Positions 4,600 to 26,814 of a stretch of 64,000 nucleotides of DNA are shown here, one piece after another. A program made the translations under genes and the position numbers. The number at the start of each line of letters is the position of its first letter. The first letter of the stretch is position 1. The DNA lies in assembly GCA_951812955.1 (NCBI GenBank), contig OX638340.1, forward strand, positions 1,920,001-1,984,000. The letters run 5' to 3'. The notes beneath the pieces are model-generated. The model was not told the DNA's origin. It saw nothing but the letters and a program-made list of their open reading frames with translations, and made no database searches. Origin of the DNA: an uncultured Gemmatimonadota bacterium. Its GTDB lineage: Bacteria; JAAXHH01.

Positions 4600-5571
4600 A
4601 TGCAATATCTACTCACCGGCGGATATGGCTGTATCGGTTCGTGGATCGTGAAGAACCTGGTCGACGAAGGGCACGATGTCGCGATCTACGACCTGGTGGA
4701 ACATACCGCCCGCATGGCATTGATCATGGACGAGGAAGAGATCGCCCGGGTCCGGTTCATCGAGGGCGACATCGCCGACGGGACCCAATTCACGCGGGTG
4801 GTAGGTGAAACAGGCGCGTCCCGCATCATCCACCTGGCCGGACTGCAGGTGCCCGTGTGCAAGGCCGATCCCATCAAGGGCGCTACGGTCAACGTAATCG
4901 GCACCCTGAACGTCTTCGAAGCGGCCAGAACCCACGACGACATCGTCCGGCGTATCGTCTACGCGAGTTCCGCGGCCGTCTACGGAATGGAAGACGACTA
5001 CGACTCCGGACCGGTCGGGAACGACGCGGTGCTGAGGCCGGTCACCCACTACGGCGTATTCAAGCAGTGCAACGAAGCCAACGCGCGGGTGTACTTTCTC
5101 GATCACGGTATTTCAAGCTTCGGCCTGCGGCCGTGGACCGTGTACGGACCGGGCCGGGACTTCGGATTGACCTCCGATCCCACCAAGGCGGTCAAGGCGG
5201 CCCTGTTGAACCGGCCGTACGTGATTGGATACGGCGGGCGGAACAACATGCAGTACGTGAACGACACCGCCCGGACGTTCATCCGCTGCGCAGAGGCAGC
5301 CACCGAAGGCGCCGGGGCCTATAGCATACGTGGCGACGTCGTGACCATCGACGAGGTGATCGCGTCCATCGAGCGCGTCGTTCCCGATTCGAAGGGACTC
5401 ATCTCCCACCTGGACATGAACCTTCCCATCGCGCCGGACCTCGATGACCGCGCCATCCAGGAAGACGTGGGCGAGATCCCCTACACGCCGCTGGACGACG
5501 GGATCAGGGAGACCTGGGAAGTGTTCAGCCGCCACCAGGAGGCCGGAACGCTGAGCACGGACGACCTGTAG
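4600..5571 (+). CDS. NAD-dependent epimerase/dehydratase (SDR family)
   Basis: N-terminal Rossmann motif 'LLTGGYGCIGSW', 'YASSAAVYG' and YxxxK region. Confidence 0.75.
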   Translation: MQYLLTGGYGCIGSWIVKNLVDEGHDVAIYDLVEHTARMALIMDEEEIARVRFIEGDIADGTQFTRVVGETGASRIIHLAGLQVPVCKADPIKGATVNVIGTLNVFEAARTHDDIVRRIVYASSAAVYGMEDDYDSGPVGNDAVLRPVTHYGVFKQCNEANARVYFLDHGISSFGLRPWTVYGPGRDFGLTSDPTKAVKAALLNRPYVIGYGGRNNMQYVNDTARTFIRCAEAATEGAGAYSIRGDVVTIDEVIASIERVVPDSKGLISHLDMNLPIAPDLDDRAIQEDVGEIPYTPLDDGIRETWEVFSRHQEAGTLSTDDL

Positions 5572-6745: not shown

Positions 6746-8314
6746 ATGAGCCGGACTGGATTTGTCACGATTTTATGTGCGTGTTTAGGGCTTTCAAGCG
6801 CGTGCAGCATGCAGGAGTTCGGATTCGAGCGAGACGAACGAGAGATCGAATTTGAGCACGACGGGCAAGACTATATCGATAGCACCAGGCAGAAATACGA
6901 GGTGAACTCCGGTGGGACACTGACGGTCGATGCCAAATTTGGGGCAATTCGCATCAGAAGCTCGATCAATGATGAAGTAGATGTCCTGGTGAGAAAGCGA
7001 TTTCGGGCAACCGATGCTGACCAGGTTCGAAAAGCCTTCAGTAATATCGAAGTCGTAATCGAACAGACGTACAACGGGGTACGAATCGAAGTCGATCAGA
7101 TCAGGTACCCCACGTACACGAAATGGTTCTGGCAGGAAGACTGGCCGGATCGGGTCTATGTCGAAATCAATGTTATAGTGCCTGAGGAATACAACCTCGA
7201 CCTCATTACCATAAGCGGTGATATCCAGACGGGGAATATCGCAGGAAATGTGACGGCTGAGACTCTTACCGGGGAAATTTCGACCGGTCCCACCGAAGGT
7301 GACTTGAGCATAAAATCGAACAGCGGGAATATAGAAACCAGCCGCGTGGTAGGCAGGTTGCACACCACTACACTGACAGGTAACATCAAGATCGGCCCAG
7401 TGGATGGTGATGCCACGGTCGATTCAAACTCTGGTAGAATAGAAACAGGTACCGTAGAGGAGGATCTGCAAGCCAAGACCCTAACAGGTAACATCAAGAT
7501 CGGCCCAGTGGATGGTGAGGCCACGGTCGGTTCGAACTCTGGCAGTATAGAAACAGGTACCGTAGTGGGGAATCTGCACGCCAAGACCCTAACAGGTAAC
7601 ATCGAAACCGGCCCAGTGTTTGGTGATGCGACGGTCTCTTCGAACTCTGGCAGAATAGAAACAGGTGCCGTAGCGATGGATCTGCACGCCAAGACCCTAA
7701 CAGGTAACATCGAAACCGGCCCCGTGGATGGTGATGCGACCGTCTCTTCGGCGACTGGCAGAATAAAAACAGGTACCGTAGAGGGGGATCTGCACGCTAG
7801 GACCTCAACAGGTAAAATCGAGATCGGTCCTGTGGATGGTGATGCAAACGTCAGTACGACATCTGGTATGGTCGAGGCCTCAAACGTGTTAGGGGTTTTC
7901 GAAACCAGATCCCTGAGCGGAGATATCAGACTAGGCCCCACAAGTGGCGACATTGTTGCTAGTTCAACCAGTGGTGATATCGAGGGGGAATTGATCGTAA
8001 CCGATCCATCCGTCGAGGCCAGGTACGACATGCAGACTCTGAGCGGAGATATAACCATTCAAATGCCAGTTGACATCCCGTCTGTTATTGATGCGCAGAT
8101 CACTATCGGGGAGATCATTGATCCGTGGTTGCCAAATTGGTGGCATGTCCAAAGGCGAATTAAATCCGATTTCGACCTGAACTTTAGTAGAATAGAATCT
8201 AGCCCAGGGAACTATGCAATTAAAGCTATCGGTGAAACGAATGGCGGTGGAAACAGAATCAAGCTGGTATCTACCGCTGGTAACATACGTATCCGAAGTA
8301 AAGACGATGAGTAG
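6746..8314 (+). CDS. DUF4097-like repeat protein / putative adhesin-type beta-solenoid lipoprotein (paralog 1 of 3)
   Basis: GGAGGAGG RBS before ATG; signal peptide with lipobox-like 'LGLSSAC'; long run of 18/36-aa 'TLTGNIxxGPxxGDxxVxSxSGxIET' repeats. Confidence 0.7.
   Translation: MSRTGFVTILCACLGLSSACSMQEFGFERDEREIEFEHDGQDYIDSTRQKYEVNSGGTLTVDAKFGAIRIRSSINDEVDVLVRKRFRATDADQVRKAFSNIEVVIEQTYNGVRIEVDQIRYPTYTKWFWQEDWPDRVYVEINVIVPEEYNLDLITISGDIQTGNIAGNVTAETLTGEISTGPTEGDLSIKSNSGNIETSRVVGRLHTTTLTGNIKIGPVDGDATVDSNSGRIETGTVEEDLQAKTLTGNIKIGPVDGEATVGSNSGSIETGTVVGNLHAKTLTGNIETGPVFGDATVSSNSGRIETGAVAMDLHAKTLTGNIETGPVDGDATVSSATGRIKTGTVEGDLHARTSTGKIEIGPVDGDANVSTTSGMVEASNVLGVFETRSLSGDIRLGPTSGDIVASSTSGDIEGELIVTDPSVEARYDMQTLSGDITIQMPVDIPSVIDAQITIGEIIDPWLPNWWHVQRRIKSDFDLNFSRIESSPGNYAIKAIGETNGGGNRIKLVSTAGNIRIRSKDDE
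7373..7912 (+). repeat. intragenic tandem array, 5 x 108-bp units (36-aa protein repeats), first four highly similar at nucleotide level
   Basis: Units begin at 7373, 7481, 7589, 7697, 7805 (ctaacaggtaacatc...); directly visible in sequence. Confidence 0.75.
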
Positions 8315-8406: not shown

Positions 8407-9171
8407 ATGAAGACGATATGGATCACAGCGATTACGTGTATAGGTATTTATCCGGTTCTTGATTCCGGCGCGCAGACCACAGAGGTCATTCAAGTTGGGC
8501 AAGGATACGCGGCAACCATTGAAGAAACATTTACTGTGGAACCGGGCGGCGAACTGACCATCGATGCCGACTTCGGATCCGTCCGGATCGAGACTTCGAC
8601 GAGCAACACCGTGGAGGTTCTTGTGGAAAAGCGCCTGAAAGAGGGCACCGAAGACCAGGCACGCCGAGCCTTCGAAGAAGTGGAGGTAACAACAGAACAG
8701 CGGGGCAACGACGTACACATCGACGTTGACAATTCGCGATGGTTCAAGCGCGCCAGGGTTTCCGTAGCTATGACCGTGCAGGTGCCTTATACATACAGTC
8801 TGGATATCAAGACGGCAGGAGGCGGCATCGAAATCGGGAACCTGGACGGCGAGATCACGGCGAAGACTGCAGGCGGAAGCATCAGGACAGGAACCACGAA
8901 AGGGGACGTGACCGCCAAGACCCTGGGCGGAAGCATCCGTATCGGCCCGACTGAGGGAGGCGTGTCTGCCAAGACGATGGGCGGAAATATCGCTATAGGG
9001 GATACGAATGGGGACGTGTCGGCCCACACGCTGGGTGGAAGCATCCGCATCGGCATTGCGGACGGGGATGTACTTGCCAGGACGATGGGCGGAAACATCA
9101 CCGTTGAAGAAGCCTCGGGTAAAGTGTCTGCCAAGACCCTGGGCGGAAAAGTCCGGGTCGGTTCCACGTAA
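8407..9171 (+). CDS. DUF4097-like repeat protein (paralog 2), secreted
   Basis: Signal peptide 'MKTIWITAITCIGIYPVLDSGAQ'; 20-aa 'KTxGGxIxIGxxxGDVxA' repeats; start moved to 8407 (RBS GGGAGTGG) rather than track start 8356. Confidence 0.65.
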   Translation: MKTIWITAITCIGIYPVLDSGAQTTEVIQVGQGYAATIEETFTVEPGGELTIDADFGSVRIETSTSNTVEVLVEKRLKEGTEDQARRAFEEVEVTTEQRGNDVHIDVDNSRWFKRARVSVAMTVQVPYTYSLDIKTAGGGIEIGNLDGEITAKTAGGSIRTGTTKGDVTAKTLGGSIRIGPTEGGVSAKTMGGNIAIGDTNGDVSAHTLGGSIRIGIADGDVLARTMGGNITVEEASGKVSAKTLGGKVRVGST

Positions 9172-9219
9172 CATATCTCTGGCGAAGACAACACCGCCTG
9201 TTTAGACATAAAGGGAGGG

Positions 9220-10506
9220 ATGATGCGTTTGTTATTGGTCGTGGTCAGTGTCAGTCTGCTCGTTGCCTCGGCATATGCATGCAGCGCACAGGAGGTCACG
9301 TTTATGCGCGACGATATGAGTCACGTAGAAAGAACCCACCAGAAATACATGGTGGATGGAACCGGCACGTTGACCGTAGACGCCGACTTCGGTTCGATTC
9401 GGATCGAGAGCTGGCCGAACGATGAAGTGGACGTCGAGGTAGAAAAACGCCGGACTGGAGTCAGCGAAGACAGCGCACGCGACGACTTCAACGACGTTGC
9501 CGTGGATATCTCACAACGGGAGAACGACGTCGACATCCAGATCGACCGGAAAAGCCGTTTCGGGTCGGAGAGGGTATCAGTGGATATACAGGTCCGGGTG
9601 CCGGAATCGTATAGCCTGGACCTCAAGACCTCGGGCGGGGATATCGATATCGGAGACCTGCGGGGCGACGTTTCCGCCCGCACCTCGGGAGGCGACGTCA
9701 ACGTCGGCACAGTGACGGAAGCGCTGCTCCGCGTTCACACGTCAGGAGGCGATGTGACCGTGAAAGGGGGCGGACGGGAAACGAAGGTATCCACCTCCGG
9801 CGGGGATATTGAGATCCGGGACGCCCGGGGCACAGTGGATGCGACCACCTCGGGCGGTGATATCACGATCGGCGGCACGGCCGGCGAAGTGACGGTGAGA
9901 ACATCGGGCGGCGATATCGAAATAGATCGGGCTGCGGGAAACACAGAGGCGACTACCTCGGGCGGCGACATAACGATAGGCCATACCACAGGGGACGTGA
10001 AGGCGAAGACCTCCGGCGGCGATATCACGATCGAGCGCGCAAACGGTGAGGTGGACGTTCATACTTCGGGTGGCGATGTGACCATCGACAGCGCTGAAGG
10101 AACCCTGAGGGCGGGCACTTCGGGTGGTGATATATCGATCAGCAATGCGCCGGGTGCCGGCTTAACGGCGAAAACCTCGGGTGGCGATATCGAAGCCCGT
10201 TTGAGCCCGACAGCAAGTGCATTGGAAGAAGAATGGATACTGAAGTCGTCCGGTGGGGAACTGACCATCCGCATTCCCGAGGATCTGTCCGCTACAGTCG
10301 AGGCGGAGATCCATCATGAGCGTTCCTGGTTCGGAAGCGACCGGGGGGATTATCAAATCGACTCGGATTTCGACCTGGACGAAGAGGTAGATGACGGTCG
10401 GGACCGAAGGACGATCCGGGCCACCGGCGATATCAACGGGGGCGGCAATCGCATCCGGCTCGAAACCAGCGGCGGCGATATTCGGATTCGTAAGGTGACT
10501 TCCTGA
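9220..10506 (+). CDS. DUF4097-like repeat protein (paralog 3), secreted
   Basis: Signal peptide 'MMRLLLVVVSVSLLVASAYACSAQ'; about 13 x 20-aa 'TSGGDIxIxxxxGxVxAx' repeats; RBS AAGGGAGGG. Confidence 0.7.
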   Translation: MMRLLLVVVSVSLLVASAYACSAQEVTFMRDDMSHVERTHQKYMVDGTGTLTVDADFGSIRIESWPNDEVDVEVEKRRTGVSEDSARDDFNDVAVDISQRENDVDIQIDRKSRFGSERVSVDIQVRVPESYSLDLKTSGGDIDIGDLRGDVSARTSGGDVNVGTVTEALLRVHTSGGDVTVKGGGRETKVSTSGGDIEIRDARGTVDATTSGGDITIGGTAGEVTVRTSGGDIEIDRAAGNTEATTSGGDITIGHTTGDVKAKTSGGDITIERANGEVDVHTSGGDVTIDSAEGTLRAGTSGGDISISNAPGAGLTAKTSGGDIEARLSPTASALEEEWILKSSGGELTIRIPEDLSATVEAEIHHERSWFGSDRGDYQIDSDFDLDEEVDDGRDRRTIRATGDINGGGNRIRLETSGGDIRIRKVTS

Positions 10507-11878: not shown

Positions 11879-14443
11879 ATGTTATTTCGCCTGACCGCCC
11901 GAATATCCGGCGGCCTGCTATGTGCTTTTGCCGGTCTCCAATTGAATCATGCCATTGCGTCAGCTCAATCTACAGACGATCAGGCTACGCTGAACAAAGG
12001 CATAGCGGAAACCGTGGCGGCGATATCGGAAGAAACCGAACGGACCTCTGACCCGCGGCCTTTCAGCGTTCCCCTTCCCGTATCCAAAACACTCTTCGAC
12101 TACGGAAATCTAGATTCCGACGACTACATACTTTCGGCCAAGCGGGCTGTTTCGACTATCGAGGTGGACGGACACCTGGATGAAGCCGAATGGCAACAGG
12201 CTGAAGTCGCCGGCGATTTCTTCCAGCTTGAACCCGTCGAAGGCGCCCCGGCAACCTTCCCCACCGAAGTCAGAGTGCTGTACGACGACAATAATCTGTA
12301 CGTGGGATTCGTCTGTTTCGACCCCAATCCGGAGAACATCATGGCCCCGGACATGCAACGGGACACCCGGATGAGTTTCTCCAACGACATGGTTACGGTC
12401 GTTATCGCATCCCTCGACCACTACCGCGAAGCCTTCGAATTCCAGACCAATCCCAACGGCGCCCGGTCCGATTCCTTCGTCAGCGCTGAAGGTAACAACT
12501 CGGACCGTGACTGGAACGGATTGTGGAATGCGGCCAGCCAGGTGTACGATTACGGTTGGTCGGCCGAATACGTGATCCCCTTCCACACGCTGCGGTTTCC
12601 CAAGCGCCAGAACCAGACCTGGGGCATAAACTTCGGACGCCGAATCCAGCGCAGCAGGGAGGAATCCTACTGGGTTCCCCTGAGCCTGAAGGACGGCGAC
12701 CAGGCGCTGTTTCGATTCGGCAAGGGCGGCCGACTGACGGCCCTGTTCGATATCACGCCGGGCGGACGGGTCCAGGCGACCCCGTTTACCGTACTTGGCG
12801 CCCAGTCCTCACGGATTACCGAATCCGCCCCGACACCCGCTCGCCCGATCGCCGCGACGGACCTCGACAATGGTATGCAGCGGAGTTTGGGCGGCGACCT
12901 TAAGGTCAGTGTCACATCGGGTCTTACGTTAAATGCGACCGTCAATCCCGATTTCGCCCAGGTGGAAGCGGACGACGAGGTCGTGAACCTTTCCCGCTTC
13001 GAATTCCAGTTTACCGAAAAGCGCCCCTTCTTCCTGGAGCGCAGCGATATCTTCACCTTGAACCAGCGGCCGCAACGACGCGGACCGCAACGTGGCGGCG
13101 GCGACCTGACGCCCCAGCTGTTCTTCAGCCGGCGCGTCGGACGACAGTTGCCGGACGGTCAGTCCGTCCCCATCGACCTCGGCATGCGCCTGACGGGAAA
13201 AATCGGGCATACGACCATCGGGTTCCTGAACGTTCAAACCCGGGAGACCCAGTACGACGACGACGGGGAACAGAAGATGGAACCGCTGACCAACTGGCAA
13301 GCCCTGCGTGTAATACGGGACTTCGGGTCACGGTCGAGCGTCGGCATGATGGCTACCTTCAAGGAACCGAATCCCCGATTCGATGACCGGGTCGGGATGG
13401 CCATACCCCGTTACGCCGAGACCGACTATAACCGCGTGATGGGATTCGACCTGAACCTGGCCTCGCGGGGGACGAATCACCGGGGGCAGATTACTTTCGC
13501 CAAAAGCTGGACCGATACGCTGAGCACCAGCAACCAGGACTGGACTTTTCGGATTATCGAGCGGTGGCAGAACCGGTGGCTTATGTACGGGATTTCCTAC
13601 CTCGACATCGGCGAGGATTTCATCGCCCAGTCCGGCCTGGTCAGAGACGAAGGCCTGCAGCGGGTAGGGGGCGGCATGACGGCCAATACCTTTCTCCGCC
13701 GGTTTGGCATTCGGCGGATCAACGGGGGGTTCAGGAGCAATTATGTGACCCGCAAGAACACGGGTTTCTCCGATGCCGATTCCTGGTCATTCCAGCCCAA
13801 TGTATTCCTGGAACTGGAACGGGGAATGTGGATCTCCGCGTCATATAACATGAATTTCGATACACTCAGCGAAACGACGCGCATAGCCGGCGTTCATTTC
13901 ACCGAAGGATCCTATTCCTTCAACCAGGGCAGTCTCTTCCTCTTTACCGACAGTGGCCGGAAGATCTCCTATCAAGGCAGCGTCCGGTACGGCAGGTTCT
14001 ACGGCGCCGACCTCCTCAGCCTGTCGAGTGAACTGTCCATCAAGCCGAATCCCCGTTTCGCGCTGGAACCTGGCATTACCCGCAGCCGGGTCGACCGGGG
14101 CAATCGCCTGGGTCTGGAGGACGACGAATACGATCATCGTACGCAACTCATACCCAGTGTCCGAATGAGTTACGCCTTCACGCCGAATCTGTCGTTCTCC
14201 TCCTTCGTCCAGTTGAACGCGGATCGGCAGCGGGAGATCGACGATTACCACATGAATACGGTAACGATGAACCTCCTCCTCGCCTACCGGTCGCCCTTCG
14301 GTCACTCGTTCTTCCTGGCTTTCAACCAGTTCCGCGATGACGACCTCGATACCGACGGTACCTTCGGCGTCTACGAACGAACGCCCCTGCGCCTGAGGGA
14401 CCAGCAGATCGTCGCCAAGGTGTCATACCTGCTGAACCTGTAG
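11879..14443 (+). CDS. CBM9-like/DUF5916 family outer-membrane-associated protein (putative carbohydrate-binding N-domain plus C-terminal beta-barrel)
   Basis: Signal peptide; 'IEVDGHLDEAEWQQAEV..DFFQLEPVEG...VRVLYDDNNLYVGFVCFD' resembles CBM family 9/DOMON-like modules; long beta-rich C-terminus. Confidence 0.55.
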   Translation: MLFRLTARISGGLLCAFAGLQLNHAIASAQSTDDQATLNKGIAETVAAISEETERTSDPRPFSVPLPVSKTLFDYGNLDSDDYILSAKRAVSTIEVDGHLDEAEWQQAEVAGDFFQLEPVEGAPATFPTEVRVLYDDNNLYVGFVCFDPNPENIMAPDMQRDTRMSFSNDMVTVVIASLDHYREAFEFQTNPNGARSDSFVSAEGNNSDRDWNGLWNAASQVYDYGWSAEYVIPFHTLRFPKRQNQTWGINFGRRIQRSREESYWVPLSLKDGDQALFRFGKGGRLTALFDITPGGRVQATPFTVLGAQSSRITESAPTPARPIAATDLDNGMQRSLGGDLKVSVTSGLTLNATVNPDFAQVEADDEVVNLSRFEFQFTEKRPFFLERSDIFTLNQRPQRRGPQRGGGDLTPQLFFSRRVGRQLPDGQSVPIDLGMRLTGKIGHTTIGFLNVQTRETQYDDDGEQKMEPLTNWQALRVIRDFGSRSSVGMMATFKEPNPRFDDRVGMAIPRYAETDYNRVMGFDLNLASRGTNHRGQITFAKSWTDTLSTSNQDWTFRIIERWQNRWLMYGISYLDIGEDFIAQSGLVRDEGLQRVGGGMTANTFLRRFGIRRINGGFRSNYVTRKNTGFSDADSWSFQPNVFLELERGMWISASYNMNFDTLSETTRIAGVHFTEGSYSFNQGSLFLFTDSGRKISYQGSVRYGRFYGADLLSLSSELSIKPNPRFALEPGITRSRVDRGNRLGLEDDEYDHRTQLIPSVRMSYAFTPNLSFSSFVQLNADRQREIDDYHMNTVTMNLLLAYRSPFGHSFFLAFNQFRDDDLDTDGTFGVYERTPLRLRDQQIVAKVSYLLNL

Positions 14444-14468
14444 CCTGTTCGATCCGGGGGGGAACAGG
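14444..14468 (+). terminator. putative terminator hairpin CCTGTTC-(10 nt)-GAACAGG immediately after stop codon
   Basis: 7-bp perfect stem seen directly; no U-tract. Confidence 0.3.
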
Positions 14469-14629
14469 CATTACTCCCGGATTGCTTGCGTTTACAGCCG
14501 GGAACTATACAAGTACCTGTGCGTTAAAATCGGGCAGGGAACCGTATTCTTGCCGTTACATAACGTCTTCCGCACGACGAACAACCGATTAGAGAGAACA
14601 TTTTCTCACTTCAGGTATACCCCGGATAC

Positions 14630-15535
14630 ATGATTATGAACCTGCAAAAATCAATAGCTGTGCCGTTGGCAATGACGATCTGCCTGGTCCTCGTCTCCGT
14701 TACCGAGGTATCGGCCCAGGATCGGAGGACTTCGGGCTGGTATGTTTCCGGTGGACTGGGCGGCAACCTGGTATACGGCCTCGACCAGGCGGGTTCGAAC
14801 ACGGAATCCACGTGCTATCCGACCAGCGCCTGCTTCGATTTGGTTCTACGGGAAATTCCCGGTTACCGGTGGCGTTACGATCCGTCCGTCGACCGGGGTA
14901 TCGGTTTCGAAGCTGCCGTCGGACGGGTGTTCGACCGTACCCGCATCGAGGTCTCATTCGCGCATAGGAGAAACAACGTCGACCAGGGACCGCCGCTTGA
15001 GATAACCTATCTCGATGGCACCACCGCGGGAGTGAGTACCTATCTCGGACAGGGACTGGCGCAGACCATCAGCAGCAGTTTCATTGAGGATCAGGTTACT
15101 CGTTCGGTTTCATTGAACGCCTACTACGATCTGCCCTTCGGTCCGCAAAGAATCACGCCCTACGTGGGGGTGGGGACCGGTGCCGCCTTCGTTGAACTGA
15201 CCAGGATCTTCTTTTCGATAGAATACACCGACCCTTCAGGAGAAGGCACGCACTACGATCCCCCCCTGTCATTCTACAACAGCAAGCAGGATACGAGGTT
15301 ATCCAATACAGTCTTCGCGGGGCACGTGTACGCGGGAGCAGCCTACAGTCTGGGCGACCGTACTGCCATCGACCTGAAGATGGCCTACTCCAGGGTGGAC
15401 GACGTCGAACACACCGGTACCTACGAGTATCATCCTTATTTAGAGACGGACCCTGCCTTCACGAATAAAAACACGTTCAGCGCCATGAACCAGTGGTCCG
15501 TGACGGTGAACGTCCGTTTCCTGTTTGGAAACTGA
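14630..15535 (+). CDS. outer membrane beta-barrel protein (OmpA-like/porin-family barrel)
   Basis: Signal peptide ending 'VSAQ'; alternating amphipathic beta-strands; C-terminal '...VNVRFLFGN'. Confidence 0.55.
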   Translation: MIMNLQKSIAVPLAMTICLVLVSVTEVSAQDRRTSGWYVSGGLGGNLVYGLDQAGSNTESTCYPTSACFDLVLREIPGYRWRYDPSVDRGIGFEAAVGRVFDRTRIEVSFAHRRNNVDQGPPLEITYLDGTTAGVSTYLGQGLAQTISSSFIEDQVTRSVSLNAYYDLPFGPQRITPYVGVGTGAAFVELTRIFFSIEYTDPSGEGTHYDPPLSFYNSKQDTRLSNTVFAGHVYAGAAYSLGDRTAIDLKMAYSRVDDVEHTGTYEYHPYLETDPAFTNKNTFSAMNQWSVTVNVRFLFGN

Positions 15536-15589
15536 CGCGGGATCGGCAGACAGCGTCAAGATCAACCAAACCGAGCAGTATTCCGCCGA

Positions 15590-15605
15590 ACGAACGCGTA
15601 CGCGT
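15590..15605. promoter_or_regulatory. perfect 16-bp palindrome GAACGCGTACGCGTTC upstream of the ureohydrolase gene
   Basis: Seen directly, 33 bp upstream of the 15638 start codon. Confidence 0.3.
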
Positions 15606-15637
15606 TCCACCGACGCTCACTGAACCGAAATAGATAC

Positions 15638-16477
15638 ATGATTCTCGAATCGCTCAAAGCGGCTCTGGAAAAATCGGATCGGCAAAAACTTGCGCTGGTG
15701 GGGATCCCCGACGACGCCAATTCCACTTTCCTCCGTGGCGCGGCCGAAGCGCCTCCGAAGATCCGTGCGCAACTCTTCTCCGATGCCTTCAACATGTGGA
15801 CTGAGACGGGTGTCGATCTCGGCGAGGACGTTTTACTCGACGCGGGCGACCTGGACCTGGGCGAGGTCCCCGATGCCTGGGCCGCGATCCAGCACGCCGT
15901 CGAAGCGGTGCTCGATCATGGGCTCACACCCATCTGCCTCGGCGGTGACCACGCCATAACCTGGCCGATCGTTAAGGGGTTCCGGCGCAAGTACGACACG
16001 CTCAGCATCCTTCACTTCGATGCGCACCCTGATCTCTACGACAATTTCGGGGACAACCCCCGCTCCCATGCGTCTCCCTTCGCTCGGATTATGGAAAACC
16101 ACCTGGCGGACCGGCTCGTCCAGGTGGGTATCCGCACCGCAAATGGCCATCAGCGGAAGCAGGCCAGACGGTTTGGGGTCGAGATGATCGAGATGCGGGA
16201 GTTGACCGGGGATCTAAGTCTGGCATTCGACTCGCCCGTCTATATATCGGTGGACGTCGATGGTCTGGATCCGGCGTACGCGCCAGGCGTCTCTCATCCC
16301 GAGCCCGGCGGCCTTTCCCCGCGGCAGGTGATCGACACGATTCAGCGTTTGGACGGCAGAATCGTCGGGGCGGATATCGTCGAGGTCAATCCGCGGAGGG
16401 ATTTCCACGATCTGACGGCGGTCGTCGCGGCTAAGATCGTGAAGGAAGTCGCCGCAAAGATGCTGGTGCATGCATAG
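15638..16477 (+). CDS. agmatinase/arginase-family ureohydrolase
   Basis: Binuclear Mn motifs 'GGDHAIT', 'FDAHPDL', 'SVDVDGLDPAYAPG'. Confidence 0.8.
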   Translation: MILESLKAALEKSDRQKLALVGIPDDANSTFLRGAAEAPPKIRAQLFSDAFNMWTETGVDLGEDVLLDAGDLDLGEVPDAWAAIQHAVEAVLDHGLTPICLGGDHAITWPIVKGFRRKYDTLSILHFDAHPDLYDNFGDNPRSHASPFARIMENHLADRLVQVGIRTANGHQRKQARRFGVEMIEMRELTGDLSLAFDSPVYISVDVDGLDPAYAPGVSHPEPGGLSPRQVIDTIQRLDGRIVGADIVEVNPRRDFHDLTAVVAAKIVKEVAAKMLVHA

Positions 16478-16720
16478 TCGTGCATAGTCGTCCGCACCGG
16501 AATCAGGTGATCTGCAGCAACTGCGCGCTATAGTTACGCGAATTCGGAACTTACGCGTACCTTCCACTTTTCGCGGCGAATCGGGCGTTCACAAACAAAA
16601 ACACGTCCAGCGCCACGAACCAACCTGTCCGTGACACTGAACGTGCGTTTCTGCAGGTAATTGACACGGGACGGCGTTACCCAGGACGGTTCAATTCAGC
16701 CCGTACGCCTGCCCAGCCCC

Positions 16721-18091
16721 CTATCCCGTCGAATCCACGAAGACGCTGTGCGCGCTGCGGTCCTTGCCCGCGTCCTGCGTGTGCTGGTACGACCGATGCT
16801 CGGAAGGTTTGCCAAGTGAGGTGAGGTCAAGCATCTTCTCCGCGGTTCTCGTCGCCACATAGGGCCGCCGGATGTCGGTCGGATTGGCCTGGATGTGCTG
16901 CTTCCAGGCGCCCAGGTCCGTCTTCGCCTGGATCAGCCCCTTGATCATGCCCATGTCGTTCAGCATGGCCACGTCGTCCGCGGGTCCGAGGATGACTGCT
17001 CCGGTGATCGTGGAGCCGTTCCAGATCAGCTTGCGGTAGACCGGCCGGTTGGCGTTGATCACCTCGGTTACGTCGCCGTCCCCCGACCAGTCGCCGAAGC
17101 TCGCGCATTGGAGCCCGCACACGTCGAGGATATTGATCAGCAGGCTGCCGCCATATTCCACGTCCTGGCCGGCCATGTTGGCCCCGGCGATCCGGCCGTG
17201 ATCGACCGCGGTCGGCTGGATGGCGTGCACTGCCTGCCCGCCCGTGGACAGGTCCGGTCCCTCGGCCACGTCGCCCGCGGCGTACACGTTCGCCGCGCTG
17301 GACTGGCAACGGTTGTTGACCAGGACGCCCTGGTTGGTCTCGATACCCGAGCCTTCGAGAAAGCCGATGTTGGCCCTGATCCCGGTGGCCACGATGACCA
17401 CATCCGCCCGGGTGGACGACCCGTCGGAAAGCTGCAGGGTCTTGACGCCGTCGTGGCCGTGATCGATTCCCTGCACGCTTACGCCGGTGTGGACTTCAAC
17501 GCCCTGCGACTCGAGCCAGGAGTTCACGAGGGACGCGCCCTGGGCGTCCAGCATGCGGGGCAGCACCTGCCCTTCGAGCTCGATCACCTTCAGGCGGGCG
17601 CCGCGTTTGTGCATCGCGTTCAGAATGATGAAACCGATGAACCCGGCCCCGATGAAAGCCACCTCGGCATCGCTACCGAGGGCGCTCACGGTCTTTTCCG
17701 CGTCCGCTACGGTCCAGAGATTGTGGACCCCGTCGCCGTCCGCGCCGGGAATGTTCAACTGCTGGGCGGATGACCCGGTGGCGATCAACAGGTTGTCGAA
17801 AGGTACCATGGAGCCGTCGCTGAGCGAGACCATGTTCGCGTAGGGATTCACCTCGGTGACACTGACCCCGAAGCGGGTCTTCACTCCCAGCCTGCCGAAA
17901 TAGTCGTCGTCTCCGGTATTTACCTGTTCGACCGGGATATTCCCTGAGATGTAGTAAGGCAGGGCCATGCGGGAATAGGCCGGCTCATCGGAGATCAGGG
18001 TAATGGACGCGTCCGCATCGTAACCGCGTATCGTTTCGATAGCGTTCATCCCGCCCGGTCCGCCGCCTATAATCACGTGTTCTGTAGCCAT
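16721..18091 (-). CDS. FAD-dependent pyridine nucleotide-disulfide oxidoreductase (NAD(P)H:acceptor/ferredoxin reductase-like)
   Basis: 'VIIGGGPGG' and second 'IGAGFIG' dinucleotide-binding motifs, 'AAGDVA'; last gene of fdx-AOR-AOR operon. Confidence 0.75.
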   Translation of the reverse strand: MATEHVIIGGGPGGMNAIETIRGYDADASITLISDEPAYSRMALPYYISGNIPVEQVNTGDDDYFGRLGVKTRFGVSVTEVNPYANMVSLSDGSMVPFDNLLIATGSSAQQLNIPGADGDGVHNLWTVADAEKTVSALGSDAEVAFIGAGFIGFIILNAMHKRGARLKVIELEGQVLPRMLDAQGASLVNSWLESQGVEVHTGVSVQGIDHGHDGVKTLQLSDGSSTRADVVIVATGIRANIGFLEGSGIETNQGVLVNNRCQSSAANVYAAGDVAEGPDLSTGGQAVHAIQPTAVDHGRIAGANMAGQDVEYGGSLLINILDVCGLQCASFGDWSGDGDVTEVINANRPVYRKLIWNGSTITGAVILGPADDVAMLNDMGMIKGLIQAKTDLGAWKQHIQANPTDIRRPYVATRTAEKMLDLTSLGKPSEHRSYQHTQDAGKDRSAHSVFVDSTG

Positions 18092-18154: not shown

Positions 18155-19984
18155 TTACGCGAGTCCCAGTTCCATCAGTTTCTCCGTGGTGGGCCGTCCG
18201 TCCGCCGACCAGCCCCTTGCCGCGTAGTAGTCCGGCAGCATGGCGTCGAGATCGACGGTCACCCCCGCGGAAGGACCATCCTTGTGGGCTTCTTCCATCA
18301 ATCGTTTAGGCAGCGTGTCATCGGCCGCGGTGAGGCCCGCCCTGAGATTCCACAGCCGTTCGATATTCCAGATGCGCTCGCCGATGTGCACGAAGTCTTC
18401 CATGGTATAGTCTACGCCGGTGGCTGCGGACAATACGGGGATCAGGTCTTCCAGCGGCGCGCCCGCCGTGGTGAACATGCAGATGCCCGTGGCGTCGTGG
18501 GCCGTGGTCCGGTTTTGTTCCTCGGCCACCCAGACCGACTTGCCCTCGGTGCCGTGGGGATCGTGCTCGCCGGTGGTCTCGATGCCGGGTGTCCAGGCCC
18601 TCAGGTGACAGGCGCCGCGGTTGCAGGTGGCATAGGCCACGCCCATGCCCTGGAATCCCCGTGGATCGTAAGCGGGGAATTCCTGTCCCTTGACGCCCAT
18701 GAAATACTCCGGATGCTCGAATTTCTCGGTCATCCGCTTTGACCCTTCGGCCAGTTCGTCGCCGAAACCCTCCCGGAATCCCGTGGCTTCCGTCATGGCG
18801 ACCAGAGCCTTGCCGTCACCGAACCGGAACGCCATGCCCGTCTGCCCATCGCTCAGCAGGCCCCGCTCATACATTTCCATGGCCGCGGCCAGCGTGGCGC
18901 CCATGGAAATGGGATCCATGCCGAGATCGTTGCACAGGTAGTTCGCCATGACGATGGCGTCCATGTCATCCACGCCGCAGTCGGCCCCGAGCGACCAGAG
19001 GTTCTCGTATTCGGGTCCTTCCCCGGCGACCTTCCAGTTGCGGGGATGCATGTTGACCATGTACTGGTCGGCATTGGGGGAAACCTGGGTCACACGGCCG
19101 CAGGCGATGTTGCAGGCGAAGCATGCCTTGTTGGCGACCAGCCAGTTATCCTTGATGCTCTCCCCGTTGATCGCCTCGGTGCCCTCGAACTGTCCGGCCG
19201 TGAAATTGCGCGTCGGCAGCCCGCCGAAAGCGTTGACGAGGTCGATCGTTGGCGCTGTGCCTAATTCCGTAAGGCCTTGCCGGCCAGGGCTTTCGGCCAG
19301 GTGTTCGTGATAAGGCCAGATGGCGGACATGTAGTCCCGGGGCCGGGCAATCCGGACCCCCTGGTTGCCGCGTACGGCGATCGCCTTGAGGTTCTTGGAC
19401 CCCATGACGGCGCCGACGCCGGAACGGCCCGCGGCACGGTGCTTGTCGTTGACGATGCACGCGAACCGCACCAGGTTCTCGCCCGCCGGTCCGATGCCGG
19501 CCACCCGTAGTTCGGGCATGCCGGTCTCGTCGCGGATGGCGTCCTCGGTTTCCGAGACCACCTTGCCCCACACATTGGAGGCGTCGCGGATCTCGACGCG
19601 GTCATCATCGACAAGGAGGTAGCACGGACGGTCCGACCGGCCTTCCACGATCACCATGTCGTAGCCGGCGAACTTGAGTTCCGGACCCCAGTGGCCGCCT
19701 GAATTGGACGTCGTGATGGCGCCCGTCAGCGGTCCCTTGGTCACCACCATGTACCTGGATCCGCAGGAGGCGTTGGTGCCCGTCAGCGGCCCGGTGGCCA
19801 TGATCAGCTTGTTGTCCGGTCCGAGGGCGTCGACAGAGGGGTCCATCTCCTCGTAGAGGTACCGCGCGGCCAGCCCGCGGCCGCCGATGTATTCCTCGGC
19901 CCAGTCGAGCCTCAGAGGCTCTTTGGTCGCCTTGCCCCGCGAAAGATCCACCCGCAGGATATGGCCGGCCCACCCGTGTGTCAT
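18155..19984 (-). CDS. aldehyde:ferredoxin oxidoreductase (tungsten/pterin AOR family), paralog 2
   Basis: AOR N-terminal domain 'ILRVDLS..GGRGL..YLYEE', Cys ligands 'CFACNIACGR'; start set at MTHGWAGHIL. Confidence 0.85.
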   Translation of the reverse strand: MTHGWAGHILRVDLSRGKATKEPLRLDWAEEYIGGRGLAARYLYEEMDPSVDALGPDNKLIMATGPLTGTNASCGSRYMVVTKGPLTGAITTSNSGGHWGPELKFAGYDMVIVEGRSDRPCYLLVDDDRVEIRDASNVWGKVVSETEDAIRDETGMPELRVAGIGPAGENLVRFACIVNDKHRAAGRSGVGAVMGSKNLKAIAVRGNQGVRIARPRDYMSAIWPYHEHLAESPGRQGLTELGTAPTIDLVNAFGGLPTRNFTAGQFEGTEAINGESIKDNWLVANKACFACNIACGRVTQVSPNADQYMVNMHPRNWKVAGEGPEYENLWSLGADCGVDDMDAIVMANYLCNDLGMDPISMGATLAAAMEMYERGLLSDGQTGMAFRFGDGKALVAMTEATGFREGFGDELAEGSKRMTEKFEHPEYFMGVKGQEFPAYDPRGFQGMGVAYATCNRGACHLRAWTPGIETTGEHDPHGTEGKSVWVAEEQNRTTAHDATGICMFTTAGAPLEDLIPVLSAATGVDYTMEDFVHIGERIWNIERLWNLRAGLTAADDTLPKRLMEEAHKDGPSAGVTVDLDAMLPDYYAARGWSADGRPTTEKLMELGLA

Positions 19985-20070
19985 GAAGAAGGCTCCGTTC
20001 CTCGGCGCTAGCCGGGTGATGCAGGGCCGCGCCCTGTGGATCACCCTTCCGGCTCATGCCGGATGAAGCG

Positions 20071-21918
20071 CTAGGTCAATCCCAGCGACGACAGCTTCTC
20101 CTGGGTGGGTTCGCCTTCCGCGTTCCAACCGCGGAGTTCGTAGTATTCCGGCAGCATCTCGCCGAGCCGGTTTACTTCGCCCTTGGTCGGGCCATCGGGG
20201 ATCGGGTCTTCGAGCAGCCGCTTAGGCAGCGTGTCGTCCTTGCCCGAAAAGCCCGCCCGCTGGTTCCACATGCGTTCGATATTCCAGACGCGTTCTCCGA
20301 CTTCCATCAGTTCGGGTACGGAGTAGGAAATCCCGGTCACCGCCTCGAGCTGGGGCTGTATTTCGTCCAGGCCCACGCCGAAGGTCAGGAACAGGCAGAG
20401 TCCAGACGCGTCCACGGTGCAGGTGGCGTCCTGGAAGATCTTCGTGATCTCTGCTTTACCTTCCGTCACGGCCGGATCCATCTTCTCCGGAATCCCCAGG
20501 ATCTCGGGGGCGACCGTGTAGCTTTTCAAATGGCAGGCGCCTCGGTTCGAGGTCGCGTAACCCAGCCCCATACCCTGGATCGCGCGGGCGTCATAGGCTG
20601 GGAATTCCTGGCCGCGCACGCCCATGAAGTACTCCGGATGATTGAACTTGGCGGTCATGCGCTTCGATCCTTCAGCCAGTTCGTCGCCGAAGCCTTCGCG
20701 ATAGGCCGCCTTCTCCACCATGGCGACCAGCGCTTCGCTGTTACCGAAGTTGAGCGCCATGCCGGTTTGCTCGTCGGTGACTGCGCCGTTTTCGTATAAC
20801 TCCATGGCCGCGGCCAGGGTGGCTCCGAAGGAGATCGGATCCATGCCGAGTACGTTGCAAAGGGCATTGGCCTTGATGAGCGCATCCAGATCGTCGATGC
20901 CGCAATCGGCACCCATGGCCCAGGCGTTCTCGTACTCCGGTCCCTCGACCGCGATCTTCCAGTTGTGCGGCCGCGTGGTCACGGTGAACTTGTCCTGCGC
21001 CTCGCCCGGAAGCTGCGACACCCTCCCGCAGGCTATCGTACAGCCAAAACACGCCTTGTTGGCCACCAGTCGCGTATCGGCAAGGGTCTCCCCGCTGATG
21101 TTGTCCGCGCCTTCGAGCTGGGATACCTGGTGGTTGTTTGTCGGCAGTGCGCCGCTCTCATTGATGATATTGACCAGCACCGCGGTGCCGTATGCGGCCA
21201 GACCCTCACCCGTTACCGGATGCTCGACCAGCTTGCTCTTCATCTCCCACATGGCCGACATGAACTTCTGCGGGTCGGCGATGGGTACGCCCCCGGTACC
21301 GCGTACGGCAATGGCTTTGAGGTTCTTGGAACCCATGACCGCGCCGACGCCGGATCGTCCGGCGGCCCGGTGCCGGTCATTGATGATGGCGGCGAAACGC
21401 ACGAGGTTTTCGCCAGCTGGACCAATACAGGTAACGACCGTGTCGTGCTGTCCCGACTCTTCCCGGACGATGTCGTCCGTCTCCCATACCGTCTTGCCCC
21501 ACAGGTGTTCTGCAGAGCAGATGCGGACGTCGTCATCACAAATGGATATGTAGGACGGAACCGGCGCCCGGCCTTCCACGATCAGCATGTCGTAGCCGGC
21601 AAACTTCAGTTCCGGCCCCCAGTGGCCGCCGGAGTTGGACGTGGTAATGGCGTTCGTCAACGCCCCCTTGGTGATCACCATGTAACGGGAACTCGTCGAT
21701 GCGTTCGTGCCGGTCATGGGACCGGTCGCGAAGATCATCTTGTTGTCCGGGCCCAGCGCTTCCGCCGCCGGGTCCATCTCTTCATAGAGGTACTTGGCCC
21801 CGAGACCGCGCCCGCCAACAAAAGACGTGGCCCAATCCATGTTGAGGGGCTCTTTGGAGATCCGACCGGTGGTCAGATCGACGCGCAGAATCGTGCCTGT
21901 CCATCCGCCGTTGCTCAT
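20071..21918 (-). CDS. aldehyde:ferredoxin oxidoreductase (AOR family), paralog 1
   Basis: Same domain organisation as 18155..19984; start at MSNGGWTG with GGGAGGGAA RBS and ATGA overlap with upstream ferredoxin stop. Confidence 0.85.
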   Translation of the reverse strand: MSNGGWTGTILRVDLTTGRISKEPLNMDWATSFVGGRGLGAKYLYEEMDPAAEALGPDNKMIFATGPMTGTNASTSSRYMVITKGALTNAITTSNSGGHWGPELKFAGYDMLIVEGRAPVPSYISICDDDVRICSAEHLWGKTVWETDDIVREESGQHDTVVTCIGPAGENLVRFAAIINDRHRAAGRSGVGAVMGSKNLKAIAVRGTGGVPIADPQKFMSAMWEMKSKLVEHPVTGEGLAAYGTAVLVNIINESGALPTNNHQVSQLEGADNISGETLADTRLVANKACFGCTIACGRVSQLPGEAQDKFTVTTRPHNWKIAVEGPEYENAWAMGADCGIDDLDALIKANALCNVLGMDPISFGATLAAAMELYENGAVTDEQTGMALNFGNSEALVAMVEKAAYREGFGDELAEGSKRMTAKFNHPEYFMGVRGQEFPAYDARAIQGMGLGYATSNRGACHLKSYTVAPEILGIPEKMDPAVTEGKAEITKIFQDATCTVDASGLCLFLTFGVGLDEIQPQLEAVTGISYSVPELMEVGERVWNIERMWNQRAGFSGKDDTLPKRLLEDPIPDGPTKGEVNRLGEMLPEYYELRGWNAEGEPTQEKLSSLGLT

Positions 21919-22406
21919 GCCGCGTTCCCTCCCTCGATGGACTGCAGATAGGAAGCATTGACCTTTTCGGCCCAGCCACCCAGCCAGTCGGCCGATTCGC
22001 TCTCGGTGTATTCGATCGCGCCGGTGGGACAGGCGACCGCGCAGGCGGGATTGCCGTCGCACAGATCGCACTTGAAGGCCTTCTGCGTATCCGGATTGTA
22101 GAACACCGTGCCGAAGGGACAGGCAATGGTGCACAACCCGCATCCGACGCAGTTTGCATCGGCCACGACCTTGGCGCCGGTATCCGCGTCGACACTGATG
22201 GCGTTAACGGGGCAGGCCGTCATGCACCAGGCTTCGTCGCACTGAAAACAGGTGTACGGCGCGTAACTGGCCTGCTCATCGAAAATGTTCACGCGAATCA
22301 GCGACCGGGATGGTTGAAACATGCCGGTCTGCACCCAGGAACATGCCAGTTCGCACTGCATGCACCCGGTGCATTTTTCGGGTATAATGCGTAGAGATTT
22401 AGCCAT
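21915..22406 (-). CDS. 4Fe-4S multi-cluster ferredoxin (AOR electron acceptor)
   Basis: Four CxxCxxCxxxCP-type cysteine clusters; first gene of minus-strand AOR operon. Confidence 0.8.
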   Translation of the reverse strand: MAKSLRIIPEKCTGCMQCELACSWVQTGMFQPSRSLIRVNIFDEQASYAPYTCFQCDEAWCMTACPVNAISVDADTGAKVVADANCVGCGLCTIACPFGTVFYNPDTQKAFKCDLCDGNPACAVACPTGAIEYTESESADWLGGWAEKVNASYLQSIEGGNAA

Positions 22407-26762: not shown

Positions 26763-26814
26763 GCCGAGGCTATTCGATTTTGGCTGTTGCATTGCTCCCT
26801 TTGGCCTAGTCACG

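Follow-up and report, generated by a model that had tools for sequence, protein, structure and literature searches.

The 3′ end of a gene for an outer-membrane beta-barrel protein (OMP) occurs twice in the window, the whole 64-kb stretch of DNA analyzed here: once as the working end of the gene, and once as a non-coding relic on the far side of an inserted agmatinase gene. We found that this insertion is polymorphic among relatives, that the relics are orthologous, that the repeated DNA forms a structure specific to one strand, and that constraint has been transferred from the coding copy (copy 1) to the relic. What is repeated is a strand-specific hairpin plus U-tract under selection, a feature that the original prediction for this locus overlooked. 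We consider it likely that a terminator embedded in the OMP end was duplicated along with the agmatinase insertion, after which copy 1 kept the coding job and the relic kept the job of terminating the neighboring oxidoreductase gene (PNDR). The relic has most likely been conserved because it carries the stop signal of this opposite-strand neighbor.

The repeat and its surroundings

The intact OMP gene (14630..15535, plus strand; stop codon at 15533-15535) encodes 301 aa and matches Pfam OMP_b-brl (1e-9) and Surface_Ag_2 (1.5e-9), and its orthologues are 68-93% identical in 20 syntenic loci. A BLASTN comparison of the agmatinase-PNDR spacer with the 64-kb window returned only one significant non-self match, in which 16545-16675 aligned with 15415-15547 at 74% over 134 nt with 4 gaps (E = 1.4e-14); the next-best match had E = 0.15. 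Identity in the repeat core is ~80%. The original prediction had reported that the OMP gene end recurs downstream at this level, and the two stretches that it named do align, at 83% mean column identity rather than at background. Its translation of copy 1 was also correct, but its length of ~85 bp was too short: the BLASTN repeat spans ~131 nt, from ~40 codons before the OMP stop to ~12 nt beyond.

Copy 1 (15415..15547, plus strand) is the working OMP 3′ end, with codons ~262-301 and a further ~12 nt. Copy 2 (16545..16675, plus strand) is the relic of the original 3′ end; it corresponds to OMP codons ~262-301 and the stop, and is damaged by a +1 frameshift near 16625 and a 2-nt deletion, with the former stop TGA at 16662-16664. 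Across the frameshift it translates as GTYAYLPLFAANRAFTNKNTSSATNQ / LSVTLNVRFCR*, the OMP counterpart being GTYEYHPYLETDPAFTNKNTFSAMNQWSVTVNVRFLFGN*.

The inserted cassette opens with a leader (15548..15637, plus strand) that contains the palindrome GAACGCGTACGCGTTC, which had been recognized in the original prediction but placed at 15590-15605; the sequence read gives 15592-15607. Across agmatinase-bearing loci, conservation of the leader is limited to the ~55 nt adjoining the agmatinase start. The palindrome is without mismatch in the window and L001 alone, has one mismatch in L002, and is non-palindromic in six other agmatinase-bearing relatives; as it is lineage-specific and not conserved, we rejected its reading as an operator. 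The gene that follows (15638..16477, plus strand; 279 aa) encodes a predicted SpeB-type ureohydrolase (Pfam Arginase, 3e-69), and its score of 191.4 bits, over the NCBIfam TIGR01230 equivalog cut-off of 174.3, predicts that it is an agmatinase. Homologues at 64-79% identity (L040-L043) share nucleotide homology with it in the ORF only, and a donor arrangement with an OMP-like gene upstream, sought around these homologues, was not found in their unrelated contexts. Between the agmatinase stop and the relic lies an insert tail (16478..16544, plus strand; read from the sequence), which starts inside a 10-nt tandem duplication (GCATAGTCGT twice, at 16472-16491) and is absent from L001 and L002.

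Past the relic hairpin, a fast-diverging spacer (16647..16720; deep-pair identity 0.55) extends to the PNDR stop codon. It is orthologous to the OMP-PNDR spacer of genomes that lack the agmatinase gene, and its motif GGGCGTTACCC also occurs in the L010 spacer. PNDR (16721..18091, minus strand; Pfam Pyr_redox_2, 3e-49) encodes an FAD/NAD(P) oxidoreductase of the pyridine-nucleotide-disulfide type, whose best NCBIfam match is PadH-like and under its cut-off. It is the last gene of a minus-strand run, upstream of which lie two aldehyde:ferredoxin oxidoreductase (AOR) paralogues and a 4Fe-4S ferredoxin (18155..22406, minus strand; Pfam AFOR_N and AFOR_C); the order Fer4-AOR-AOR-PNDR is seen in the gene calls of L048 and L049. 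Exact look-ups of the window OMP, the window agmatinase, and P0121 returned no record, and Rfam gave no match over 14300-17000.

Sites with and without the cassette

In the first 20 syntenic relatives, the OMP gene is directly convergent with PNDR in 12 and separated from it by the agmatinase gene in 8. L049 is a ninth carrier, which brings the syntenic total to 21 (12 empty, 9 occupied). The synteny check proposed with the original prediction, namely whether the OMP gene stands directly before the downstream gene in relatives, thus gave a positive answer in the 12 convergent cases, and the placement of the agmatinase gene between direct repeats was borne out, as an insertion with one copy at either end. 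A second OMP gene or an OMP fragment of more than ~40 codons was found in none of the 21 syntenic relatives (tblastn in 20 loci, gene list in L049); this absence indicates an insertion that displaced the original 3′ end, not a decayed tandem array. The downstream flank of the relic is homologous to the OMP-PNDR spacer of empty-site genomes, which makes copy 2 the original 3′ end of a single OMP gene, left in place. On both counts, the tandem OMP array envisaged in the original prediction was not supported.

The relics of L001-L005, L007, and L049 are orthologous to that of the window and have the derived motif CACCTGTCC in common. In L003, L004, L005, and L007 the relic starts 5-8 nt past the agmatinase stop, exactly at the U-tract described below, so the part kept in all of these lineages is the candidate terminator. 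The hairpin part of the relic has been lost from L017 and L025, which are apparently viable, and a different hairpin of 12 perfect bp is kept in their spacer. L005 carries two units in tandem.

For the cassette in L017/L025, fourfold-site identity is 0.74-0.81 in the agmatinase gene versus 0.52-0.65 in the flanks, and it is probable that the cassette spread horizontally into this second clade; the breakpoints of the putative transfer were not located by sliding-window identity. A concatenated tree of DUF5916, PNDR, and AOR was incoherent: DUF5916 is a mosaic whose identity varies non-monotonically within 76-96%, and best matches are confused by AOR paralogues or the lack of them. Single-gene NJ trees were used instead, which are weakly resolved, and the locus is recombinant.

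The window contains another repeat, at 26.8 and 33.9 kb, with copies of 88 nt that are 83% identical around a restriction-modification island. The original prediction drew a parallel with it, as a repeat that likewise includes a gene end. The repeat is real, but there is no gene 3′ end in it: the upstream stop codon lies 47 nt before the first copy, and the second copy extends over the beginning of a histidine kinase ORF.

The minus-strand hairpin and the shift of constraint

A terminator scan and RNA folding identified a candidate intrinsic terminator of the PNDR run in the relic (16591..16646, minus strand). The hairpin occupies 16601-16646 on the strand of PNDR, begins 74 nt past the PNDR stop codon (16721-16723), and is followed by UUUUGUUUGU at 16600-16591; in the relic core, the minus-strand hairpin has G-U pairs and then UUUUUGUUUGU. 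Its stem has 20 uninterrupted pairs, 10 of them G-C and 5 G-U. The minus-strand fold reaches −40.3 kcal/mol (z = −4.8), with 0 of 200 shuffles as stable; the plus strand gives z = 0.03. Energies are about −33 to −36 kcal/mol for minus-strand folds and −16 to −22 kcal/mol for plus-strand folds, and the relic of L049 folds with z = −7.1. In the scan of window positions 1-60000 the relic hairpin came out on top, with 20 pairs versus 8 or fewer at every other site. The first 9 nt of the U-tract include 6-8 U in all eight relics, seven of which have 7-8. Its shape and its conservation are the basis on which we infer that the relic element terminates the PNDR run.

In all 12 empty-site genomes, this element falls within the last ~25 codons of the OMP coding sequence (mean −33.1 kcal/mol), with 7 of 9 U in the U-tract of 10 of them. 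OMP homologues at 33-47% identity lack the element despite their kept C-terminal peptide pattern. Within about 460 kb of related DNA the hairpin was found only at the OMP-PNDR locus, and a metagenome scan with the hairpin pattern gave four unrelated chance matches and no extra loci. In an alignment of 29 sequences (27 distinct), 91% of cells are paired, versus 33-44% in slid controls. The same alignment contains no two-sided compensatory changes, only one-sided ones such as C-G to U-G, so the case for the structure is built on thermodynamics, strand asymmetry, and conservation. An apical A-U to C-G change seen by eye in L049 is not in this count. Canonical terminator-like sites are not enriched in the window (19, 15, and 16 versus 14.6, 17.9, and 14.3 in shuffles), and the organism may have no general reliance on intrinsic terminators.

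On the minus strand of copy 1, the corresponding hairpin and U-tract (15460..15521, RNA fold) are weakened: the 62-nt core folds at −23.9 kcal/mol with three unpaired stem positions and the tail UUUUAUUCG. Across relic-bearing genomes, copy 1 has stem mismatches of 2.4 versus 1.25 and poorer U-tracts, and in L049 its U-tract is destroyed. Synonymous constraint in the OMP gene of empty-site genomes is 0.873 in the 22-codon core versus 0.676 in the rest of the gene (rank 2/285), compared with 0.783 versus 0.788 in relic-bearing genomes (rank 162/285); the genomes in such comparisons of empty-site and agmatinase-bearing groups are not phylogenetically independent. The relic core, in turn, has a pairwise identity of 0.90; the corresponding value is 0.55 for the spacer next to it and 0.74-0.78 for fourfold sites of PNDR, agmatinase, and OMP, while a fourth gene, AOR2, gave 0.85 at fourfold sites from partial data. 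The excess over fourfold sites has a binomial P of 7e-5 to 2e-3 in four of five deep pairs and 0.053 in the fifth. Copy 1 is only 0.77-0.87 identical to the relic of its own genome, and the relics have derived states in common; gene conversion therefore does not explain the conservation.

Alternatives, parallels, and implications

The damage to the relic, with its frameshift and small deletion, and its decay or deletion to differing extents by lineage outside the hairpin core, would fit a neutral scar, that is, a non-functional pseudogene piece whose seeming conservation stems from recent insertion or from gene conversion by copy 1. Relic 2 of L005 does resemble copy 1 of L004, which indicates some exchange between copies. 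We find this explanation improbable, as the core is far more conserved than fourfold sites and spacer in the same genome pairs, relics are nearer to each other than to their own genome's copy 1, and relic stems are more perfect than those of the coding copies. There is a similarly small chance that the hairpin acts in plus-strand RNA, where it would terminate or stabilize the OMP or OMP-agmatinase mRNA, or that it is a bidirectional terminator. Empty-site genomes have a T-rich run, CGTTTCCTGTTTGG, after the hairpin on the plus strand, the L004 relic folds almost equally well on either strand, and the relic follows closely on the agmatinase stop in L003, L004, L005, and L007. Against this stand the poor plus-strand folds given above and the loss of the T-rich tail from relics; moreover, a plus-strand terminator in empty-site genomes would cut the OMP mRNA upstream of its own stop codon, which excludes the idea that the element is the OMP gene's own terminator.

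Other explanations concern the origin of the arrangement. Copy 2 clearly derives from an OMP C-terminus, and some distant genomes do have OMP paralogues (e.g. L020/L021 and L036/L037, each pair in one assembly), so it could be the leftover of a second tandem paralogue into which the agmatinase gene was inserted or most of which it replaced. This is very unlikely given that the syntenic relatives contain no second OMP or larger fragment and that, in the 12 empty-site genomes, the 3′ end and spacer of a single OMP abutting PNDR match the relic and its flank. We give just as little credence to the repeats being att sites of a site-specific mobile element, or an attC-type integron-like cassette conserved for DNA recombination, even with a single-gene cassette between direct repeats, an imperfectly palindromic repeat, two tandem units in L005, and a cassette that seemingly moved between clades. 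Direct repeats at both ends and empty sites are present, as for a site-specific element, but neither the cassette (agmatinase only) nor its neighbors (DUF5916, OMP, PNDR, and AOR) include an integrase or transposase. Owing to its 3-5 G-U pairs, the structure is specific to one RNA strand, and the hairpin, found at this one locus in about 460 kb of related DNA, is already present in the OMP gene of genomes that never show the cassette. In integron attC sites, an RYYYAAC core site precedes a GTTRRRY one, and an integron integrase is encoded nearby; the arms here, ACGTTCAG...CTGAACGT, have GTT 5′ and AAC 3′, the opposite order, and the attC reading was rejected on this and on the lack of an integrase among the neighbors. 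An agmatinase arrangement ancestral to the clade, with the 12 empty sites produced by repeated deletion between direct repeats, is unlikely but deserves some weight. Single-gene NJ trees place empty-site genomes among occupied ones (L010 and L014 for PNDR, L008 for OMP), L018 nests with L017/L025, and the direct repeats and L005 duplication show that unequal exchange occurs. These trees, however, are weakly resolved at a recombinant locus, the relic itself shows that OMP-PNDR adjacency preceded the insertion, relic-specific states such as CACCTGTCC do not occur in empty-site OMP ends, and the low fourfold divergence of the L017/L025 agmatinase relative to its flanks suggests transfer and not ancient vertical descent. 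Secondary loss of the agmatinase gene in a few lineages is plausible.

Under the duplication and division of labor that we favor, the OMP gene and the Fer4-AOR-AOR-PNDR run would have been convergent in the ancestor, with the stop signal of the run (minus-strand hairpin plus U-tract) inside the last ~25 OMP codons, so that one DNA stretch had two jobs. In one lineage, a ~1-kb cassette of leader and agmatinase would then have been inserted along with a duplicate of the OMP 3′ end. Copy 1 would have completed the OMP frame while the original 3′ end, the relic, stayed beside PNDR. From then on, copy 1 would have been under protein-coding constraint only, its antisense hairpin and U-tract eroding; the relic would have lost its frame while purifying selection kept its hairpin and U-tract, with a cleaner stem, as a putative terminator or 3′-end-forming element of the PNDR transcript. 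Candidate routes for the duplication plus insertion are homology-anchored illegitimate recombination, single-crossover integration of a circle, and template switching. Later history would include one tandem re-duplication of the unit (L005) and a probable horizontal spread into L017/L025. It is also conceivable, if quite unlikely, that the duplicated end makes the cassette portable, as a recombinase-free unit bounded by a coding-embedded terminator, with the 26.8/33.9-kb repeats as a second product. The unit [OMP end - leader - agmatinase - relic] would then carry its own homology arms, each of which matches the one OMP end that any empty-site relative has, and host recombination alone could excise it, re-duplicate it (L005), or install it elsewhere (as suggested for L017/L025).

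Rho-independent terminators serve convergent genes, and some are bidirectional, according to the account of Ju, Li & Liu 2019 cited in PMC8060035. The candidate resembles intrinsic terminators in its GC-containing stem-loop and U-tract after the last co-directional gene, between convergent units. It differs in its ancestral placement within the opposing gene's coding sequence, in a strong strand asymmetry that comes from its G-U pairs, and in an unusually long stem of 20-21 bp, in a host where such sites are not generally enriched. In Rhs, CDI, and T6SS effector loci, C-terminal displacement leaves orphan 3′ fragments via homology-facilitated illegitimate recombination (PMC5361080 and references therein). 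As in those loci, the OMP gene is intact with a new 3′ end, followed by incoming DNA and the old 3′ end, a short homology is repeated at the gene end, and arrays can grow (L005). Unlike those loci, this one has an OMP and an agmatinase in place of a variable toxic domain or immunity gene, its old and new 3′ ends encode nearly the same peptide, and the displaced piece is ~40 codons, probably kept for a non-coding function on the opposite strand. The elements e14 and phage 21 integrate into E. coli icd and supply a substitute 3′ end. There too the insert lies between a functional 3′ end and a displaced, diverged copy, but these elements have an integrase and defined att sites, whereas the agmatinase insert is a 1-kb single-gene cassette without a recombinase. 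In duplication-degeneration-complementation, each duplicate keeps one ancestral function and degenerates for the other. The OMP end would be similar in having had two functions of which each copy keeps one; the unit, however, would be a 60-nt DNA segment instead of a gene, with a protein C-terminus and an RNA terminator on opposite strands.

The locus reveals no new kind of molecular machine. The OMP-end DNA encodes a protein C-terminus on one strand and, as we infer, the transcription stop signal of a neighbor on the other. A gene insertion that duplicates such two-job DNA would let each copy keep one job, the evidence here being a measurable move of constraint from coding copy to relic. This would explain how a "dead" gene fragment stays conserved, and it warns annotators that such relics may be regulatory. 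It also offers a testable model for the entry and spread of small metabolic genes between convergent genes of uncultured bacteria associated with sponges.

The OMP end beside PNDR and the inserted agmatinase

The OMP_b-brl beta-barrel outer-membrane protein gene (OMP, 14630-15535, plus strand) lies downstream of a DUF5916/CBM9 protein (11879-14443) and upstream of an arginase-fold protein (15638-16477), a predicted agmatinase that scored 191 bits with the NCBIfam agmatinase equivalog model (cut-off 174). Convergent with OMP is a Pyr_redox_2 flavoprotein, an FAD/NAD(P) oxidoreductase (PNDR, 16721-18091, minus strand), with two aldehyde:ferredoxin oxidoreductases and a ferredoxin upstream of it on the same strand. 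The two oxidoreductases are tandem paralogues (18155-22143) with ~60% protein identity and nucleotide repeats 1931 nt apart; related loci L004 and L016 have a single paralogue instead. Coding repeats at 7208-7855 and 8854-10194 have periods of 108 and 54 nt, respectively, the latter within DUF4097 "toastrack" proteins.

Using the agmatinase-PNDR spacer (16478-16720) as a BLASTN query against the whole window, we obtained one significant non-self match, the OMP 3' end. The match pairs 16545-16675 with 15415-15547 in a 134-column alignment (4 gaps, 74% identical, E=1.4e-14); the runner-up had E=0.15. The two segments originally named also aligned well with each other, which bears out the OMP-end repeat observed around the agmatinase. 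The repeat, which a gapless repeat finder missed because of its indels, spans from ~40 codons upstream of the OMP stop to ~12 nt past it. The downstream copy translates to GTYAYLPLFAANRAFTNKNTSSATNQ/LSVTLNVRFCR*, with a +1 frameshift between the parts, resembling the OMP C-terminus (GTYEYHPYLETDPAFTNKNTFSAMNQWSVTVNVRFLFGN*), and is therefore a non-coding relic of an OMP C-terminus.

An OMP search with one genome per species yielded 39 loci, 20 of them syntenic (L001-L019 and L025), from MAGs labelled Gemmatimonadetes, Latescibacterota, or just "bacterium." By tblastn, agmatinase lies between OMP and PNDR in L001, L002, L003, L004, L005, L007, L017, and L025, and OMP is directly convergent with PNDR, with a gap of 26-162 nt, in the empty sites L006, L008-L016, L018, and L019. 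L049 is an additional occupied locus, joined to the set after the first 20. In every occupied genome of the window's clade, the relic directly follows the agmatinase stop. The relics have derived states in common (e.g. CACCTGTCC replacing CACTGGTCC), and the DNA 3' of the relic matches the OMP-PNDR spacer of empty sites (e.g. GGGCGTTACCC, also in L010). These features identify the relic as the original OMP 3' end, its position beside PNDR unchanged, and the working 3' end (copy 1), leader, and agmatinase as the added material. The empty sites and this flank support the insertion that had been proposed. The accompanying idea of a tandem OMP array found no support, as tblastn mapping revealed a second OMP at none of the syntenic loci and the relic is the original end of a single OMP.

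A 10-nt tandem duplication (GCATAGTCGT twice, 16472-16491) crosses the agmatinase stop codon (TAG, 16475-16477). In the close relatives L001 and L002, the ~65 nt that follow it are missing and the left part of the relic decayed differently; the more distant L049 agrees with the window (85% over 91 nt). In L004 (8900-8935), two copies of the post-stop motif TTGACGCGGGA, spaced by 15 nt, lie in the stretch from the OMP stop to the agmatinase leader; they could reflect the original junction or a second small duplication.

Agmatinase homologues (64-79% identity) occur in unrelated contexts, one beside a DDE transposase, and their homology with the window is confined to the ORF, from start to end. 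None of these contexts offered a donor in which an OMP end precedes the agmatinase, and the insert has no recombinase nearby. Its geometry would fit any of three routes: homology-facilitated illegitimate recombination, proposed for displaced 3' ends at T6SS and Rhs loci (PMC5361080), single-crossover integration of a circle bearing an OMP-end homologue, or replicative template switching.

A candidate minus-strand terminator in the repeat core

The repeat core is an imperfect palindrome with an A-run at its left and T-rich sequence at its right. On the minus strand, the relic can form 20 uninterrupted base pairs including 5 G-U (16601-16646), followed by UUUUGUUUGU (U-tract, 16600-16591). Its predicted minus-strand fold has −40.3 kcal/mol (z=−4.8; 0/200 shuffles equally stable), and the plus-strand fold is unremarkable (z=0.03) because the G-U pairs turn into A-C mismatches. 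In a terminator scan, this hairpin ranked first in the region and was the only site in 1-60000 with more than 8 pairs, all others having 8 or fewer; hairpin-plus-T-run sites as a class were not enriched over that span (19, 15, and 16 found vs 14.6, 17.9, and 14.3 in shuffled sequence). Rfam gave no matches across 14300-17000.

All 12 empty-site genomes have this same minus-strand hairpin and U-tract within the last ~25 OMP codons (62-nt cores, mean −33.1 kcal/mol; L010, z=−3.6). OMP homologues from other phyla (33-47% identity) retain the C-terminal peptide pattern with no such hairpin or U-run; the structure therefore does not simply follow from the protein sequence. A terminator acting on the plus strand here would stop the OMP mRNA ahead of the OMP stop codon. 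The sole sensible client of this candidate terminator would be the convergent PNDR run: read along the minus strand, the hairpin begins 74 nt past the PNDR stop codon. Among 27 distinct aligned sequences there were no two-sided compensatory changes; one compensatory change near the apex was seen by eye in L049.

Constraint on the two copies and later history of the cassette

We measured synonymous constraint as third-position identity at same-amino-acid codons. Among phylogenetically non-independent genomes, this was 0.873 in the 22-codon core vs 0.676 elsewhere in empty-site OMPs (n=12; core rank 2/285, best non-overlapping window 0.807) and 0.783 vs 0.788 in relic-bearing OMPs (n=7; rank 162/285). 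In a group comparison that is likewise phylogenetically non-independent, copy 1 of relic-bearing genomes had 2.4 stem mismatches vs 1.25 at empty sites (relics, 1.5) and 5.9 T in the 9 nt of the U-tract vs 6.75 (relics, 7.0). It also folds more weakly there (window, −23.9; L002, −18.8), and in L049 its U-run is wholly gone (AAA to ATT).

Pairwise identity of the 54-nt relic core averaged 0.90 across the seven relic-bearing genomes, against fourfold-site identities of 0.775 (PNDR), 0.776 (agmatinase), and 0.743 (OMP); AOR2 reached 0.848, with partial data or none for several pairs. Binomial P values for the core against fourfold sites were 7e-5 to 2e-3 in four of five deep pairs and 0.053 in the fifth, window vs L004. 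Identity in the hairpin-to-PNDR-stop spacer was just 0.55 in deep pairs. Concerted evolution does not account for relic conservation, since copy 1 is only 0.77-0.87 identical to its own genome's relic. Hairpin and U-tract make up the part of the relic present in every lineage; in L003, L004, L005, and L007 the relic begins 5-8 nt past the agmatinase stop, its edge falling exactly at the U-tract. We propose that function was transferred between copies, with the sequence constraint moving from coding copy 1 to the relic.

L005 has two units, in the order OMP, agmatinase, relic 1, second gutted unit, PNDR. The second (4206-5200) comprises, in order, an L004-type leader, the first ~45 codons of another agmatinase, a 209-aa membrane-protein ORF (4390-5019, minus strand), the ~20 final codons of this agmatinase, and relic 2. 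This arrangement indicates tandem duplication of the cassette by unequal exchange between repeats, then another insertion.

The distant clade of L017 and L025 shares the agmatinase-to-relic junction (TAGGTGCCCGCA...) and lacks the hairpin part of the relic. Both retain, distally in the spacer, a perfect hairpin of 12 bp (GGACCGGC...GCCGGTCC; also ACACGGACCGGC...GCCGGTCCGTGT) whose sequence is homologous to OMP-PNDR spacer DNA in L006 and L012. Placed ~70-110 nt upstream of the PNDR stop codon in plus-strand terms, it may be a substitute 3'-end element. Fourfold-site identity to the window's clade is 0.74-0.81 for their agmatinase vs 0.57-0.65 for PNDR and 0.52-0.58 for OMP, suggesting that the cassette reached this clade via transfer into the same locus. 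A few empty-site genomes fall within the occupied clade in single-gene NJ trees, so some secondary agmatinase losses are possible. The DUF5916/CBM9 protein and its L001-L025 orthologues have mosaic identities to the window (76-96%) that do not track neighbor genes; this mosaicism suggests frequent recombination at the locus and spoiled a concatenated tree.

Related arrangements in the window and in known systems

The palindromic agmatinase leader that had been described exists, with its position corrected to 15592-15607; it is perfect in the window and L001 only, other lineages having ACCGTGTACGCTTTCTCGCGTGCC there. The proposed parallel at 26.8/33.9 kb holds as far as a direct repeat is concerned (26809-26896 and 33888-33974; 88 nt, 83%, E=9e-22). 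It fails in that no gene 3' end is included: the first copy begins 47 nt beyond the preceding stop codon, and the other overlaps the 5' end of a hybrid histidine kinase ORF (GAF-PAS-HisKA-HATPase-REC-Trans_reg_C, 33930-36305). The enclosed ~7 kb opens with an adenine methyltransferase of the D12 class and a restriction endonuclease of the NotI family. L048 and L049 lack the entire 26.8-36.3 kb block, and their rhodanese gene directly adjoins the methyltransferase genes found at 36.4-38.2 kb in the window, so we read the ~9.6-kb block as a whole as an insertion in the window genome.

The candidate terminator at the OMP end has the defining shape of an intrinsic terminator and the same position between convergent units. 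Bidirectional terminators were reportedly described by Ju et al. in 2019 (as cited in PMC8060035) at sites between convergent units; unlike them, this element is strand-specific and embedded in opposing coding sequence. The gene-end duplication is like polymorphic-toxin C-terminal displacement, but without toxin or immunity content or an integrase. The icd/e14 case is a gene-end duplication of a similar kind, but the present locus again has no integrase. What is new is the combination: an insertion duplicated a segment with a probable dual use, after which the relic took over the constraint once borne by the coding copy.
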